A stretch of DNA of 64,000 nucleotides from an uncultured Nitrospiraceae bacterium (lineage in GTDB: Bacteria; Nitrospirota; Thermodesulfovibrionia; Thermodesulfovibrionales; SM23-35), in contig CAVSHB010000004.1 in assembly GCA_963727775.1 (NCBI GenBank), positions 160,001 through 224,000 on the forward strand, written 5' to 3'. The notes beneath the pieces are model-generated. The model was not told the origin of the DNA. It searched no databases and was given only the letters and a program-made list of their open reading frames with translations. Both the position numbers and the translations under genes were made by a program. Position 1 is the stretch's first letter, and each line of letters starts with the position of its first letter. Positions 22,905 to 29,650 of the stretch are shown in pieces.

Positions 22905-23642
22905 TCAGGCTTGAGGCAAAGCCGCGGACTGTTTGGCGGGATTTATCACCCAAATATTCCCGAACTCTTTGTCCTGATACGCCCTGGCAAGCCCGAGCCT
23001 GATGAGTTCAAGCAGGGCGACAAACGTAACGACTAACTGCATTTTTGTTATACCGTCTCTGAAAAGATCTTCAAACCTGACAGTCTCCTGCCCTTCGATT
23101 ATTTCCATTATCACGGACATCCTGTCCTTCACCGTCAGGGTTTCTTTTGTTATTGAAGCAATTTCAGGAGGCGCCTTATCGAGAATTTTTTTGAACGCGT
23201 CAATAAGGTCAAACAGGCTGATGTCAAAAAGGGAAAGCTCTGCATCGTCTTCATCCGGTGAGAAAGGTTCCCGGCGGAATACATTCATCCAGTTCTCCTC
23301 TCTATTTCTGAAGTCGCCTGCCGCTTCCTTAAACCTCTGATATTCGAGCAGCCTCTGGACGAGTTCAAGCCTCGGGTCTTCCTGTTCCTCTGAAGGCGCC
23401 TCTTCATCAGGCGGGATCAACATCCTTGATTTGATATGGATCAAGGTCGCGGCCATAACGATGAATTCGCCGGCTATCTCAAGGTTGAGTTCCTTCATCA
23501 TTTCGATATATTGAAGGTACCGGCCCGTAATCTCGGCAATAGGGATGTCGTAGATATCAACCTTATTGTCCCTAATAAGATGCAGTAGAAGATCAAACGG
23601 CCCCTCAAATACAGGAACCTTTATATTTATAATATCTTCCAT
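22905..23642 (-). CDS. scpA: Segregation and condensation protein A
   Basis: FEGPFDLLLHLI, EFIVMAATL..IKSRML, VVTFVALLEL. Confidence 0.93.
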   Translation of the reverse strand: MEDIINIKVPVFEGPFDLLLHLIRDNKVDIYDIPIAEITGRYLQYIEMMKELNLEIAGEFIVMAATLIHIKSRMLIPPDEEAPSEEQEDPRLELVQRLLEYQRFKEAAGDFRNREENWMNVFRREPFSPDEDDAELSLFDISLFDLIDAFKKILDKAPPEIASITKETLTVKDRMSVIMEIIEGQETVRFEDLFRDGITKMQLVVTFVALLELIRLGLARAYQDKEFGNIWVINPAKQSAALPQA

Positions 23643-23718
23643 CTGTTCCGTTATTATACATCAAAGGATGGATCCGGCGGCGATCCAAAGACAGTATTCC
23701 GAATATGATTGCAGCGCC

Positions 23719-23747
23719 TTGACAAAATTATAAAATATGCTTATATT
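23719..23747 (+). promoter_or_regulatory. Sigma70-type promoter of the ArsR-selenoprotein operon, overlapped by a candidate operator
   Basis: TTGACA-17 bp-TATATT; palindrome AATAT-N4-ATATT overlaps the -10 box. Confidence 0.65.
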
Positions 23748-23782
23748 CGAAAGTAAGAATGTATTTCAATAGGAGGAATGAC

Positions 23783-24124
23783 ATGCTTTCTATGGGTCAA
23801 AGAATAGAACTCTTGAAAATTATTGCTCATCCCGTGAGAATCCGTATCCTTGAAGAACTTTCAAAGGGTGTCAAATGCGTGAGCGATTTCGAGGAGTTCC
23901 TTGACATAAGACAACCTAATGTATCGCAGCATCTTTCGCTTCTGAGACATTACGGCATAGTGGATTACTATATGGACGGAAGGCTTAGGTGCTATTTTCT
24001 TATTAACCCGATCATACCTGATCTTCTCGAACTGCTCAGAAAGGATTACCGCGAATCACTTCCGCGTCCTGCGTGTTGTCCAATAACCAAGAAGGGCGTG
24101 TATCCGGGGAACAGGGCAAGATAA
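23783..24124 (+). CDS. ArsR/SmtB-family transcriptional regulator
   Basis: AHPVRIRIL, KCVSD, QPNVSQHLSLLR; C-terminal ACCP; AGGAGG RBS. Confidence 0.9.
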   Translation: MLSMGQRIELLKIIAHPVRIRILEELSKGVKCVSDFEEFLDIRQPNVSQHLSLLRHYGIVDYYMDGRLRCYFLINPIIPDLLELLRKDYRESLPRPACCPITKKGVYPGNRAR

Positions 24125-24174
24125 TAATATCAGCAAGATAGTTTCAAGATTTAAAGGATACAAGGAGGCAAAAG

Positions 24175-24501
24175 ATGAAAATTGGGATTCTTATTTCAAC
24201 AGGTGACGCAGAGACGGTCTGGAATGCCTTCCGTTTTGCGAACCTCTGTCTGAACACAGACGTGACCAACGAAGTGTCGATTTTTATGCATGCAAAGGCA
24301 GTCGAATACGAAAGCTGCAACTCTGAGAAGTTCAACATCAAAGAGCTTGCAAAAATGTTTGTCCTGAGTGACGGAAAATTGCTCGCATGCGGCAAATGTT
24401 TGGGCTTCAGGGGATTAGAAGATAATGATATCTGCCGTAAGGGCAGTCAGAAAGATCTGTACGAAATGGTCACCACGAGCGACAAGCTTGTCTGCTTCTG
24501 A
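24175..24501 (+). CDS. DsrE/YchN-family sulfur relay protein
   Basis: ETVWNAFRFAN, LLACGKCL..RG, SDKLVCF. Confidence 0.85.
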   Translation: MKIGILISTGDAETVWNAFRFANLCLNTDVTNEVSIFMHAKAVEYESCNSEKFNIKELAKMFVLSDGKLLACGKCLGFRGLEDNDICRKGSQKDLYEMVTTSDKLVCF

Positions 24502-24545
24502 GATGTCATTGGAATGTCAGCTCTGAGAAAGGGAGGTGAATTATT

Positions 24546-24797
24546 TTGGTAAAAATAACAATCTATTCCAATCGACCCGCCGGAAAGCGGTGAACCAATC
24601 TCTGTGCTTTGGCCGGGAAAGTCAAAGAAAAATATCCCAAAGATGTAGAAGTGGAAACGGTCTATTCCGGTTTCCTTGGTCTTGGTCATAAAGGAGATGC
24701 CGTCAAGCCCCCTAACATAGCCGTTGACGACACAATACTTGGAGGCGAAGCCACTTTTGAAGACATTGAAAAAGCTGTTATGGGAAAACTGTCTTAG
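24546..24797 (+). CDS. Small thioredoxin-like selenoprotein (NxPxGxxU motif), 83 aa
   Basis: GGGAGGTGA RBS, TTG start, MVKITIYSNRPAGKR-TGA(24591-24593)-TNLCALAGKV..., in frame with the 24609 ORF; SECIS-like hairpin CTTTGGC/GTCAAAG. Confidence 0.75.
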
Positions 24798-24822
24798 AGA
24801 AGACGATGGAGGTGCGGATGTT

Positions 24823-26559
24823 ATGAAAAGAATAATATATGCGGGAGTCCTGTTTTTAGTCTTTGTGAGTTGTGTCTCTCTGGCGCAGGCAGAAATCCAA
24901 AATGCAGACCGCGTTCGGGGCCAGATTGTCGCTGAGGCAAAAAAGGGAGGATATCAGCTCATCACACCTGAGGAACTCAAAAAGGAATATCTAAAAGATT
25001 CATCCGCGTTTCTTCTTGTAGATACAAGGCAGGAGTGGTCGTATCAGATGCAGCATATCAAGGGGTCCTTACATATTGACTTTGCTCCGACCTGGTGGAA
25101 TCAATACTCACCTATGATGCGGTCGGAGATGAAAGCCCTTCTCGGTACTGAAAAAAATAAGAAAATTGTCTTTTATTGAGACGGTTTAACGTGAGTGCGA
25201 AGTCACGGTGCGGCCAGTTTGGCTGTAAAACTTGGATATAAGAATATATACCGTTTCGCTGAGGGCCTTCCGACATGGAAAGAGATGGGATTGCCTCTTG
25301 AGGCGGGTCGCGCATCTTATGGAGCGTCCGGAGGACAGAAAGGTATTTCGACTGTTATTGGCACGGGCTTGATCCTGACACTTCTCGGAGTATTTATAGG
25401 GGGAATAGCCCTTAATCTTACTCCCTGTGTTTATCCTCTGATCCCAATTACAGCTTCCTATTTTGGCGGTAGGAGTGAAACAGGTGAACGTCAGGGATAT
25501 CTTCTTCTCCACGGCCTTCTCTATATTCTCGGGCTATCTGTCATGAATTCTGCCATTGGAGTTTCAGCAGCATTCACTGGCAGGCTCATGGGCTCATTTC
25601 TTCAGCATCCTGCTGTGCTTATTTTTGTCTCATCTGTATTGCTCCTAATGGCGCTTAACTTCTTTGGCTTATGGGAACTCCGGCTGCCAAGCTTCCTGAG
25701 TTCCGTTGTATCAAAATCCCACACCGGTTATGTCCAGTCACTCTTCATGGGACTGACACTCGGTATAATTGCTGCTCCCTGTATCGGTCCGTTTATTATA
25801 GGGCTTCTGACCATGGTTGCCCAGAGGGGTGATCCCTGGTACGGTTTTCTCATATTCTTTACTCTGAGCATCGGCCTCGGATTACCGCTATTTATTCTAT
25901 CGATATTTGCCGGAAATGTAAGCAAGCTCCCCCGATCAGGTGAATGGTTGATATGGATCAGGAATCTTTTCGGATGGATCATGCTTGCCATGGCTGTATA
26001 TTTTGTAAAACCATTGTTACCGTGGCATGATGCCGGAACTTACATGCTGGCATTAATTGCTTTGGCTTCAGGAGTTCATCTGGGCTTCGTTAGTAAGACA
26101 GGTAAAAATTTGAGAACTTTCACTATTATCAAAAGAAGCATAGGTATTCTTGTGATAGGATTATCTATCTTTCTTGCAGGCTCCGTCCTCTTACGGGGAC
26201 CAGGGGTATCCTGGCGGCCATATTCTCAAGACACGTTCTCAAAAGCGATGGCTTCAAATAAACCGATAATCATTGACTTCTATGCGGATTGGTGTACACC
26301 GTGCGGTCAGTTGGACAAAAAAACATTTCATGACAAGGAAGTTGTTAAGGAATCCGCTAAATTCAGCATGATCAAAGTTGATCTGACGAAGGAAGCTAAT
26401 CCCGATGTTCTGCAACTGTTGAAAAAATATGATGTCAAGGGTGTGCCGACGGTTATATTCCTTGATCCTCGCGGTCAGGAAATAAAGGAATTGGAGATTG
26501 TGGACTACATCCCCGGTAATGAATTTTTGCCGAGAATGAAAAAGGCATTAGGAGAATAA
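24823..26559 (+). CDS. Exported rhodanese-DsbD(beta-gamma) fusion selenoprotein with two Sec, 578 aa
   Basis: Signal peptide; rhodanese LVDTR...HIKGS...VFY-TGA(25177)-DGLT-TGA(25192)-VRSHGAA...GLPTW; DsbD LTPCVYP, AAPCIGP, WCTPC; all one frame. Confidence 0.85.
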
Positions 26560-26566
26560 CCGAGTA

Positions 26567-27277
26567 ATGAAACTAAAAAAAATAGTCGTCTTGATCGTTA
26601 TTTCCGCCTTAATCGTGGCAGTTAAGGTATTTCACCTCGACCAGTTCCTCACTCTTTCATATCTGAAGGGATCATTGGATAAGCTGAAAGCCCTCTATGA
26701 AAACCACAGGGTGCTGGTCATTGCAGGCTATTTTGTCATTTACGTTCTTACAACCTCTATTTCCTTGCCCGGAGCTTCTCCGTTAGGTATCGCTGGAGGA
26801 GCGCTGTTCGGTTTCTGGACAGCGACAATCGTGGTCTCTTTCGCAAGCTCTATCGGCGCCACACTGGCATGTTTAGTTTCCCGCTATCTACTAAGGGACT
26901 GGATACAAAGTAAATTCGGTGACAAGATTGCAAAGATCAACGAAGGTATCGAAAAAGAAGGCGCGTTCTATTTATTCACCCTGCGGTTGATTCCGGTATT
27001 CCCTTTCTGGATGATCAACCTCACTATGGGTCTGACAAAAATGTCCCTTATTAAATTCTATTGGGTATCACAGATAGGAATGCTTCCCGGAACTATGGTT
27101 TTTGTTAACGCCGGAAAGGAACTTGCAAAGATTGATTCTCTCAAGGGAATTTCCTCTCCAGGCCTGATCATTTCATTTGCACTCATCGGCATATTTCCCA
27201 TAGCGGTAAAGAAACTGGTGGCTTTATACCGTTCCAGGATGAAGAAGACCGCTGGCGATGCCGGAAATATTTCCTGA
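26567..27277 (+). CDS. TVP38/TMEM64 (DedA/SNARE-associated) membrane protein
   Basis: SLPGA, GGALFG, LRLIPVFPFW.IN, SQIGMLPG. Confidence 0.88.
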   Translation: MKLKKIVVLIVISALIVAVKVFHLDQFLTLSYLKGSLDKLKALYENHRVLVIAGYFVIYVLTTSISLPGASPLGIAGGALFGFWTATIVVSFASSIGATLACLVSRYLLRDWIQSKFGDKIAKINEGIEKEGAFYLFTLRLIPVFPFWMINLTMGLTKMSLIKFYWVSQIGMLPGTMVFVNAGKELAKIDSLKGISSPGLIISFALIGIFPIAVKKLVALYRSRMKKTAGDAGNIS

Positions 27278-27285
27278 GGGCATCC

Positions 27286-27603
27286 ATGGGAAGGTATGAA
27301 GAAATAACAGACGCGCTACAAATCCTCGGATTATATGAATCCGCAACAGTAAAGGAAATCAAGAACAAGTATCGGGAATTGCTCAAAGAATGGCACCCTG
27401 ACTTATGTAAGGAAAATGAACATATTAGAAAAGAAAGAACTATTGAGATCATCAATGCGCACAGAACAATAATGGATTATTGTGAGCAATATAGATTTTC
27501 GTTCTCCAGGGAAGAAGTTGAAAAATATGTATCTCCTGAAGAACTTTGGGCAAAACAATTTGGAAAAGACCCAATATGGGGAAACTATCAAGATGATGGA
27601 TAA
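27286..27603 (+). CDS. Small DnaJ-domain protein
   Basis: ILGL...EIKNKYRELLKEWHPD. Confidence 0.82.
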   Translation: MGRYEEITDALQILGLYESATVKEIKNKYRELLKEWHPDLCKENEHIRKERTIEIINAHRTIMDYCEQYRFSFSREEVEKYVSPEELWAKQFGKDPIWGNYQDDG

Positions 27604-28237
27604 GATAACTATATTTGATAAATATGCCGAAGAATATGATAGATGGTTTGATACGAATTCATTGGTGTATCAATCAGAAGTGCGGGCAGTGAGAATGCTG
27701 CTGCCTCAAAATGGCCAGGGGGTTGAAATAGGAGCTGGTACAGGAAGGTTTTCAGTTCCATTGGGAATAACACTCGGCGTTGAACCTTCAAGAGCAATGG
27801 CCGAAATTGCAAGAAGCAGAGGAATGACGGTATATGATTCAAAAGCAGAGAATCTACCATTTGATGATAATACATTTGATTTTGTATTAATGGTCACAAC
27901 AATCTGCTTTCTTGAAGATCCGTTGCAAGCAATAAAGGAAATCAGAAGGATTCTTTGTCCTTCGGGAAAGCTCATCATCGGTATGCTTGACAAAGATAGT
28001 CCTCCTGGAAAGGAGTCTCTCTCTAAAAAGAAGAACAGCAAGTTTTATCAGTATGCCAATTTTTATTCGGTCAACCGTGTCTTGAACTGGCTTAAGATAT
28101 CAGGATACAATCATATTCATGTTCTCCAAACAATCTTTAAGAAACCGGAAGAAATAATTGTCTTAGAGCCGATAAGAGAGGGATATGGAGAGGGATTGTT
28201 TGTTGTAATTTCTGCTCAAAAAGGAAAGACAATTTGA
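27593..28237 (+). CDS. Class I SAM-dependent methyltransferase
   Basis: FDKYAEEYDRWF, EIGAGTGRF, LPFDDNTFD. Confidence 0.88.
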   Translation: MMDKITIFDKYAEEYDRWFDTNSLVYQSEVRAVRMLLPQNGQGVEIGAGTGRFSVPLGITLGVEPSRAMAEIARSRGMTVYDSKAENLPFDDNTFDFVLMVTTICFLEDPLQAIKEIRRILCPSGKLIIGMLDKDSPPGKESLSKKKNSKFYQYANFYSVNRVLNWLKISGYNHIHVLQTIFKKPEEIIVLEPIREGYGEGLFVVISAQKGKTI

Positions 28238-28331
28238 AAAGGTTAGTTCAGTTGGTAAGGTACCGTCATCGCTTAATCGTCAGATGGCCTACCCGTCATC
28301 GAAGAAATCAATTAATATCTCGAAGAACTTT

Positions 28332-29381
28332 CTACAAAATCCTGATACAGGGAGTTGGATTTGATATCGCGTTCCCAATTATTGAGGCAGTTTCCATCCC
28401 TGCAGTTTTCAATTCATTAACTAATTGGTCCGCCTGGGATTCAGGAACCGACAGGAGAAGACCCCCCGATGTCTGTGGATCAAAGAGTAATTCCGCCTCT
28501 TTCTCTGACAACTTTGTAATTATTTCCAGACGTCCTTCTGATAATTTCCTGTTTGCCTTATTGCTGCCGGTGGTTTCACCTTTACGATACATCTCAAGAG
28601 AATGAGGATAAAACGGCAGTTCATTATAGAAAAGATCTATTTGTACTCCACTTCCCGTTGCCATCTCCAATGAATGTCCAACAATGCCGAACCCCGTTAT
28701 ATCGGTACATGCATGGATGTCGAAACTCAGTGCTGTATCAAGAGCCTTTTTATTAAGGGCTGCTACGCGAGGCAGGATAACTTCCAGTTCTTTGAAGGAT
28801 AGTTTCCCCGATCTACACGCATTAAACAATACACCGGTGCCCAAAGGTTTTGTGAGGACCAAGACATCCCCTTCCTGAACTGCGCAGTTTGTCAGTATTT
28901 TATCGGGATGAACGACTCCCGTAACCGCAAGGCCGTACTTGGGCTCATTGTCATCTACAGAATGTCCGCCGGCCATAGAAGCACCGGCTTCGTTGACTTT
29001 GTCATTCCCGCCACGGAGTATTTCTTTCAAAACACTCTTGTCAAGTTTCTTGGGGGGAAACATGACGAGGTTCAAGGCAGTGAGAGGTTTGCCCCCCATG
29101 GCATAGATGTCCGAGAGAGAATTCGCTGCAGCGATTTGTCCAAACCAATACGGATCATCCACCGGCGGTGTAATAAAATCGACGGTACTGATAAAGGCCA
29201 TCTCGTCTGATAGGCGGTACACTGCCGCATCGTCACAAGTATTGAACCCGACAAGCAGGTTCGGATCGTTAGAAGCGCTTAGTGCCTTGAGTGCTTCCGC
29301 CAGATCTGACGGACCTATTTTAGCTGCTCAGCCGCATGTCCGGGAGAGTCCTGTAAGAGTTCTTTTCTTGAAGAGACGCAT
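28332..29381 (-). CDS. selD: Selenide, water dikinase (selenophosphate synthetase), Sec-containing
   Basis: MRLFKKRTLTGLSRTCG-TGA(29330-29328)-AAKIGP...DDAAVY in frame with the 29222 ORF; TVDFITP, AANSLSD.YAMGG, TKPLG, DPQTSGGLL; SECIS-like hairpin TCCGTCA-GATC-TGGCGGA. Confidence 0.93.
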
Positions 29382-29650
29382 TTTCTTTTTTTACTTTGGG
29401 CTTTCAGTCGCTTTGATGTCCAATATTTCTTTTCTATCGATGCCCTATGATATATAGAAAATATCTATTTATAGCATTGCATTCAAGAAAAGGATATATT
29501 GCCAGTTGGGCAGCCAATATTGACTGCAATGGAAGGTCTTAAGCTACAATCACACAATTTCGAGAATTTCTGAAGGTACACCGCACCTCTCAAAGCATGT
29601 CCGATGTGCAAACTTGATGAGGGATTCGATATATTTTCAGCGCCCCAAAT

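Follow-up and report, generated by a model that had tools for sequence, protein, structure and literature searches.

The window analysed here is a stretch of 64,000 nucleotides from contig CAVSHB010000004.1 of an uncultured Nitrospiraceae bacterium (assembly GCA_963727775.1), and positions 24823-26559 of its plus strand hold a gene, tsoB, that almost certainly encodes a genuine double selenoprotein of the TsoB family. Translated with stops read through, the region is a single frame of 578 codons from the ATG at 24823 to the TAA at 26557-59, within which in-frame stops occur at two places only, TGA 25177-25179 (codon 119) and TGA 25192-25194 (codon 124). Calling of open reading frames (ORFs) with translation table 11 breaks the gene in two, at 24724-25179 (151 aa) and 25195-26559 (454 aa). 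The original prediction, made from the letters of the window, had joined these ORFs into one frame cut only by the two TGA codons, which translation confirmed. With U standing for selenocysteine (Sec), the read-through sequence around these codons is KKIVFY-U-DGLT-U-VRSHGAASLAV. The same prediction had pointed to an NCBI family of Sec-containing rhodanese/DsbD fusions named TsoB, and the protein indeed matches the NCBIfam profile NF045694 (TsoB) with 838.6 bits against a cut-off of 805, covering positions 2-571 of the 572 in the model; a search of the genome that reads through stops gives 826.4 bits for the same profile. The features of the gene and its product are:

24823..26559 (+): tsoB coding sequence, 578 codons with two UGA codons read as Sec (translation; NCBIfam NF045694)
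24823..24891 (+): signal-peptide-like N-terminus, residues 1-23, MKRIIYAGVLFLVFVSCVSLAQA/E (AQA/E), read from the sequence, with a hydropathy peak at 4-22 (H = 2.22)
24964..25284 (+): rhodanese domain, residues 48-154 (Pfam PF00581, 55.5 bits)
25177..25179 (+): UGA codon 119, Sec at the canonical rhodanese catalytic position (TGA in all TsoB loci examined; alignment to PDB 6mxv)
25192..25194 (+): UGA codon 124, Sec in a two-residue insertion of the active-site loop (aligned Cys invariant in homologues)
25372..26016 (+): DsbD-type transmembrane domain, residues 184-398, with C202 (TPC) and C320 (APC) (Pfam PF02683, 154 bits; hydropathy)
26212..26529 (+): C-terminal thioredoxin-like domain, residues 464-569, with WCTPC (C491, C494) (Pfam PF13098, PF00085 and PF13899)

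Domain architecture and conserved redox pairs

The signal peptide, the Cys pair of the DsbD beta domain (TPC and APC) and the WCTPC thioredoxin domain that had been read from the sequence were all located, at residues 1-23 (signal-peptide-like), at C202 and C320, and at C491/C494 respectively. Eight hydrophobic segments lie across residues 178-457, between the rhodanese and thioredoxin domains, as judged by hydropathy. Given an exported N-terminus and an even number of membrane spans, the thioredoxin domain is predicted to be periplasmic too, as in DsbD.

The mature protein contains six Cys or Sec residues in all, namely U119, U124, C202, C320, C491 and C494. In an alignment of 42 sequences, consisting of 40 TsoB sequences and two fusions in Cys form, the columns of these six residues hold Cys or Sec in 41-42 of the 42 rows, and Cys stays below 50% in every other column; C202, C320, C491 and C494 are each kept in 42/42. 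TsoB thus has exactly three conserved redox pairs, one per module, an arrangement that parallels the three essential pairs found in DsbD.

HMMER alignment of the active-site loop to PDB 6mxv reads FYC-DGL-TC-VRS vs FYC-GGG----FRS. Because U119 aligns with the catalytic Cys of 6mxv, it marks the canonical catalytic position, and T123-U124 form a two-residue insertion in the active-site cradle. The nearest relatives outside TsoB match the membrane and thioredoxin parts only, and all 8/8 that were scanned carry an N-terminal DsbD alpha domain (PF11412). This supports the earlier suggestion that the immunoglobulin-like alpha domain has been replaced by the rhodanese, so that TsoB would be a DsbD with one terminal domain exchanged for another.

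Decoding of the two UGA codons

The source genome (G000; 4 contigs, 96.8% complete) holds complete selenocysteine machinery: selA, selB and selC, which the original prediction had asked to see, and also selD. selA was found by profile search with 619 bits, and the tRNA-Sec with a UCA anticodon lies at G000:C3:290654-290751. Two copies of selB score above the curated cut-off, at G000:C3:368296-370146 (+) and G000:C1:1564881-1566725 (-), with 371.5 and 350 bits. The fourth gene, selD, lies 1.8 kb from tsoB, convergent with its cluster, and is itself a selenoprotein gene (SRTCG-U-AAKIGP). At least two selB copies occur in 13/37 genomes of the same family vs 0/24 outside that family. A tie between the second selB and TsoB was considered and dropped, since at least two copies are found in 5/10 TsoB-positive vs 8/27 TsoB-negative genomes of the family and related genomes are not independent samples. 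As TGA also serves as an ordinary stop in this organism, ending 14/36 long ORFs in the window and 470/1380 in the genome, a global recoding of TGA was rejected.

The two TGA codons are conserved wherever the gene was found. TsoB matches occur in 10 of 61 related genomes, with both TGAs kept in 10/10, and a second phylum, which holds the canonical members of the family, gave above-cut-off matches in 26 of 401 sampled genomes, with both TGAs in 30/30 matches. Within the phylum of the window itself, 2/401 sampled genomes contain TsoB above the cut-off. The motif FYU.GL.UVRS is present in 17/17 TsoB loci checked, and around the conserved codons the protein has diverged by about 50%. In one second-phylum genome, at G789:C14:444866-446519, the TsoB homologue lies in two overlapping frames, the N-terminal part with two TGAs and the C-terminal part with one further TGA, possibly through a frameshift or an assembly error.

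Both TGA codons align with Cys in related rhodaneses, as had been proposed, the pattern of these being C-x4-C-x-R-S. Both Cys/Cys and Sec/Sec homologues were found. The former include a Cys/Cys fusion of 578 aa (P0002, FYCAGPDCVRSD), exported standalone rhodaneses with VFYCGxxxCxRSH, in which Cys occupies both TGA-aligned positions, and a Cys/Cys paralogue within the source genome itself (CGFTKCGRSH). At the position of U124, Cys is invariant in 14/14 homologues of one alignment (A2), and Cys or Sec in 42/42 of the 42-sequence alignment.

That the TGAs are true stops or damage, leaving either two genes (for a rhodanese fragment of 118 residues and a DsbD-like protein of 454 aa) or a pseudogene, would agree with the public gene calls, where 52/53 matches to the rhodanese region are calls of 446-461 aa that start after the second TGA and N-terminal pieces of 116-120 aa, ending immediately ahead of the first, also occur; however, this is very unlikely and close to refuted by conservation, given that identical codons carry both TGAs in every TsoB found, across two phyla and the divergence noted above, that homologues have Cys at both positions, that stops would cut the rhodanese fold within its active-site loop, that the Sec machinery is complete and that the curated NF045694 model spans the full length across the stops. 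The truncated calls are named DsbD, CcdA or thioredoxin-domain protein and amount to a systematic annotation error, in which almost all public TsoB gene calls are cut at the second UGA.

A tree was computed on the membrane and thioredoxin part, with identical rows and rows of fewer than 380 residues dropped (47 distinct rows; midpoint root). The branch with this tsoB is one clade (100/100) on a long stem, and second-phylum sequences form the rest; NF045694 scores are about 803-848 bits in the Nitrospirota-type branch vs about 850-1012 in the second phylum. The two Cys-form fusions fall at two separate places within the Sec-bearing clade; P0108 is a long branch. This double nesting suggests that Sec/Sec is older and that Sec was replaced twice, and Sec/Sec may thus be the ancestral state in the sampled, midpoint-rooted tree.

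Two hairpins follow the UGA codons. They were measured by hand against the rules for a bacterial selenocysteine insertion sequence (SECIS) element quoted in a 2026 review (PMC13188914), namely a loop of 3-9 nt with a G among its first two nucleotides, a distance of 16-37 nt from the UGA, and a free energy of -7.5 kcal/mol or below:

25190..25207 (+): hairpin 1, 5-bp stem 25190-94/25203-07 with UGA-124 in its 5' arm and a loop with G first (folding; -7.3 kcal/mol)
25209..25227 (+): hairpin 2, candidate SECIS, 8-bp stem 25209-16/25220-27 with loop GUU (folding; -10.2 kcal/mol)

Hairpin 2 agrees with the quoted rules in loop, energy and spacing, which is in range for both UGAs, and it is our main SECIS candidate. 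Its energy lies between -9.6 and -12.9 kcal/mol in 16/17 loci (-2.9 in L023), 95.5% of its cells are paired across 16 sequences, and its pair 39-51 covaries at synonymous third codon positions (AU:10, GC:5, GU:1). Given that it stands 22 nt after UGA-124 and 37 nt after UGA-119, the latter being the upper spacing limit, both tandem elements and one shared element are possible. The weaker hairpin 1, which contains the second UGA and whose apical loop begins 15-17 nt past UGA-119, may help decoding at the first.

Several observations count against a reading as a double selenoprotein with these elements. Among Cys homologues the first position (that of U119) is G in P0108 and S in P0076 and P0080 while the second Cys is invariant, so that some proteins evidently do without a complete pair. 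Hairpin 1 has low stability (-5.5 to -7.3 kcal/mol in 12/17 loci; -8.6 in 2/17), just short of the energy limit in the window's own sequence. Its register is common to 11/16 aligned sequences and shifted by 2 nt in the other 5, all from the second phylum, so that only three apical pairs are shared by both phyla, one of them as GC:10/CG:5. Each compensatory change is a single event, split between the two clades. A hairpin after each TGA had been predicted and both exist, although the fold of the two together is not thermodynamically exceptional (z = -1.51; 18/200 shuffles fold as well). A scan of 23500-29600 against Rfam returned no SECIS family at E <= 5 and only two chance-level hits. The original prediction had also called two UGAs five codons apart a demanding decoding case; this needs softening, as the table in PMC13188914 lists bacterial UxxU selenoproteins, which provide a precedent.

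The operon around tsoB

The genes around tsoB are, in order, an ArsR-type regulator, a DsrE-like protein, a small selenoprotein, tsoB, a DedA/VTT protein, a J-domain protein, an S-adenosylmethionine (SAM) methyltransferase and the convergent selD:

23759..24124 (+): ArsR/SmtB-type regulator, weakly TsoR-like (NF033788 68.9 bits, cut-off 55; TsoR NF045707 31.7 bits, cut-off 115)
24175..24501 (+): DsrE-like protein, 108 aa, CGKC motif, ordinary TGA stop, in the place that TsoA occupies in canonical operons (Pfam PF02635, 43.1 bits)
24546..24797 (+): divergent TsoC-like small selenoprotein, NRPAGKRU-TNLC, TTG start, UGA at codon 16 (24591-24593) (NF045708 26.1 bits, cut-off 45, residues 2-38)
26567..27277 (+): DedA/VTT-family membrane protein, directly downstream of tsoB (Pfam PF09335, 90.1 bits)
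27286..27603 (+): small J-domain protein (Pfam PF00226, 41 bits)
27482..28237 (+): class I SAM methyltransferase (Pfam PF08241, 68 bits)
28332..29381 (-): selD with its own in-frame UGA at codon 18 (29328-29330) (TIGR00476 376.8 bits, cut-off 125, TGA read through)

In the canonical locus L036 of the second phylum, TsoR (157 bits), TsoA (225 bits), a J-domain protein, TsoB, TsoC (146 bits) and a DedA/VTT protein are found together, with a ChrA-type transporter nearby, and in 3/5 genomes of that phylum TsoA adjoins TsoB. The cluster described here departs from the canonical tso operon: TsoA (NF045695) has no match in the whole genome, 96.8% complete, at E <= 10, and the TsoC and TsoR scores stay below their cut-offs. 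TsoX and TsoY were likewise not found in this genome. With no TsoA, a DsrE-like gene and a variant TsoC, this branch possesses a remodelled operon.

The DsrE-like gene is present in 7/11 Nitrospirota-type loci compared. Two other identities for its product were rejected, that of a disguised TsoA for want of similarity (BLASTP E = 1.8) and that of a read-through selenoprotein as its relatives match only the 108 residues before the TGA stop. The TsoC-like protein and canonical TsoC share 33% identity across 39 residues, their Sec residues being aligned, and the former is homologous to the N-terminus of the latter. It differs in an extra Cys four residues after Sec and in its motif, NRPAGKRU vs the canonical NEPxGxxU. 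Seven loci of the Nitrospirota-type branch share this variant and four have canonical TsoC (L025 and L031 being the same sequence); the TGA of TsoC or its variant is present in 17/17 loci.

Related loci retain the ArsR-type gene, TsoC or the TsoC-like gene, tsoB and DedA, with the ArsR/SmtB-type regulator kept upstream of tsoB. DedA follows tsoB in 10/11 Nitrospirota-type loci, the eleventh ending inside tsoB, and lies downstream in many second-phylum loci. The J-domain protein has a 49% identical homologue within the canonical operon of L036, and homologues of the methyltransferase lie downstream in related loci. The links of tsoB with DedA, the J-domain protein and TsoC or its variant are conserved across the two phyla.

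Some further observations concern individual genes. The C-terminus of the regulator carries a conserved P-x-CC-P-[IV]-TKKG motif (PACCP here and PECCP in L031), which may be a sensing site. The methyltransferase ORF as listed opens at GTG 27482 and shares about 120 nt (27482-27603) with the J-domain gene; translation probably begins further downstream, and an internal Met near 27593 is the more likely start. A fragment of selD is also present at the edge of the related locus L024. In a related Nitrospirota metagenome-assembled genome, a 660-aa fusion after DedA (L031:8706-10688, plus strand) joins an ArsS-type radical SAM (seleno)protein (377.7 bits) to an arsenite methyltransferase domain. 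Elsewhere in the source genome, L002:933-1971 (G000:C1:1538673-1539711) holds a MauE/DoxX membrane protein followed by the exported rhodanese with CGFTKCGRSH, which among Cys paralogues is closest to the rhodanese domain of TsoB, and next to it lies a gene resembling the D-component of 2-hydroxyglutaryl-CoA dehydratase. Among public sequencing runs, no RNA dataset matched and eight DNA datasets each contained at most 0.11 of the words.

Proposed function of TsoB and comparison with known systems

In DsbD, electrons pass from thioredoxin to the beta domain, then to gamma and finally to alpha. By analogy, the signal peptide of TsoB would place the N-terminal rhodanese in the periplasm, followed by the eight DsbD-type transmembrane helices and the periplasmic thioredoxin-like domain. 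Electrons would then run from cytoplasmic thioredoxin to the membrane Cys pair C202/C320, on to the CxxC of C491/C494 and into the rhodanese loop, where their target would be a selenenylselenide between U119 and U124 or a Se-X-Se adduct. An atom of a chalcogen or metalloid is predicted to be captured by U119, which holds the canonical catalytic position; U124, in the loop insertion, would resolve the adduct to the selenenylselenide, and the CxxC domain of the relay would reset the pair. From its sequence, TsoB is thus a putative periplasmic protein that would reduce or carry a chalcogen or metalloid. The parts of this scheme differ in strength. That a DsbD-like relay feeds the rhodanese loop is probable, and the U119/U124 diselenide is presumed by analogy. 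A metalloid or selenium as substrate is a tentative suggestion drawn from the gene neighbours. Taken as a whole, an exported, membrane-bound TsoB whose relay reduces the Sec loop for a substrate of Se/Te/As type is the best explanation available, which we favour only slightly over the possibility that it is wrong.

Substrates of Se/Te/As type are preferred over housekeeping sulfur chemistry because of the ArsR-type regulator, the TsoC-like selenoprotein, DedA, the methyltransferase and selD nearby, and the ArsS/ArsM fusion in a relative. For DedA, a review (PMC11422209) states an involvement in selenite uptake in Ralstonia metallidurans. Other considerations pull the opposite way. The choice of substrate rests on gene neighbours, two of the pointers favour sulfur, as set out below, and the electron flow faces a thermodynamic difficulty, which is taken up with the metal-binding alternative. 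No experimental study of TsoB was found in the literature searched, where only the review PMC13188914 surfaced and the primary paper (Haft & Tolstoy 2025) lay outside the search.

The same protein and relay could serve sulfur instead, as a Sud-like periplasmic polysulfide/thiosulfate sulfurtransferase or reductase of a sulfate- or sulfur-respiring organism in which Sec merely speeds catalysis. The rhodanese fold is classically that of a sulfurtransferase, weak PDB matches include Sud (1qxn, "sulfide dehydrogenase", E = 0.0031) and thiosulfate sulfurtransferases, the DsrE-like gene two genes upstream, with its counterparts in related loci, belongs to a sulfur-relay family, and close relatives are assigned to Thermodesulfovibrionales by protein-database names. 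However, the regulator is of the ArsR/SmtB metalloregulator type, and the partners kept across two phyla are DedA, the TsoC selenoprotein and the J-domain protein rather than Dsr, Psr or Phs genes. The ArsS/ArsM fusion lies near tsoB in L031 and the chromate-type ChrA transporter near tsoB in L036, and canonical tso operons do without the DsrE-like gene. Sulfur as the substrate is therefore judged unlikely.

A second alternative takes the U-x4-U loop as a soft-ligand site for a metal or metalloid (Hg, As(III), Te or Cd) that undergoes no redox cycling. The DsbD module would then keep the selenols reduced, and TsoB would act as a periplasmic trap or chaperone, handing its cargo on, for example to DedA. 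A diselenide has a redox potential much lower than that of a thioredoxin-type dithiol, so that reduction of a U-U bond by the CxxC domain would be uphill; this is a difficulty for the relay and favours the metal-binding alternative somewhat. The conserved C-terminal CC of the regulator, in the form PACCP here and PECCP in L031, also agrees with it, as does an active-site loop two residues longer than in sulfurtransferases. In addition, the table in PMC13188914 classes closely spaced double-Sec proteins, the UxxU putative mercuric reductase and MbdU, as metal-binding. Yet the number of conserved pairs, exactly three, matches the electron cascade of DsbD with its three pairs, U119 occupies the catalytic position, where the persulfide is carried, and the first ligand is missing in some Cys homologues, which a chelating site of two ligands would not easily tolerate. 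For these reasons a purely metal-binding loop seems improbable, and the relay-driven reductase remains the preferred explanation.

A bolder version of the relay-driven reductase, in which we place little expectation, would make a reduced tso-like module (TsoC-like protein, TsoB, DedA, J-domain protein and methyltransferase, with selD close by) a line for the acquisition or detoxification of Se or Te, stripping these from insoluble or oxidised forms and passing them inward, with both Sec codons decoded from one shared SECIS at the spacing extremes of 22 and 37 nt. Were this true, no periplasmic reductant so far described would have a lower potential than such a DsbD-driven selenenylselenide in the loop of a rhodanese. 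Two selenocysteines within one catalytic loop occur in very few proteins, TsoB among them, and TsoB offers an experimental handle both on a membrane-fed periplasmic selenoenzyme and on the decoding of two UGAs 15 nt apart.

Compared with DsbD and ScsB (alpha-beta-gamma), TsoB has the same DsbD_TM domain with two membrane Cys, the C-terminal CxxC, eight hydrophobic segments and three redox pairs. It differs in having the rhodanese where those proteins have PF11412, to which it gives no match, and in a terminal pair that is Sec/Sec rather than Cys/Cys. Consistent with this, the DsbD model NF001419 (PRK00293) scores 235.7 bits on residues 183-574, under its cut-off of 330. Among rhodanese domains (PF00581), U119 holds the catalytic position of TsoB and the active-site loop is two residues longer than that of 6mxv. 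The exported single-domain rhodaneses with C-x4-C-x-R-S-H share the loop spacing, its flanks (VFYCGxxxCxRSH vs VFYUDGLTUVRSH) and a signal peptide with TsoB, and are 29-41% identical to P0002 (alignment A3) and 31-37% to the rhodanese domain of the window (A2), but contain Cys rather than Sec and are not fused to a reductase. The exported rhodanese paralogue of the source genome is, like TsoB, paired with a membrane redox-type protein, the adjacent MauE/DoxX.

Two Sec residues within one short motif also have parallels: eukaryotic SelL carries a UxxU diselenide, and the double-Sec UxxU families set a precedent for decoding nearby UGAs. Those motifs are of thioredoxin fold with a spacing of two residues, whereas TsoB has a rhodanese loop with a spacing of four.

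A curated model and a published prediction of this family already exist. PMC13188914 describes the "Tso (three selenoprotein operon)" and lists TsoB as "UxxxxU, 2 Sec", a predicted family, both after Haft & Tolstoy 2025, in keeping with the original prediction that TsoB lacks experimental characterisation. The TsoB of the window resembles the family (NF045694) in its full-length match above the cut-off, its three domains, the UxxxxU with two Sec and the links to DedA and the J-domain protein; it differs in belonging to a separate branch, with an operon that lacks TsoA, TsoX and TsoY, shows weak TsoR and TsoC and has gained a DsrE-like gene. What is new here is that the family reaches Nitrospirota-type genomes as a distinct branch with a remodelled operon, together with support for the exchange of the alpha domain for a rhodanese and for a set of exactly three conserved pairs, and the SECIS geometry.

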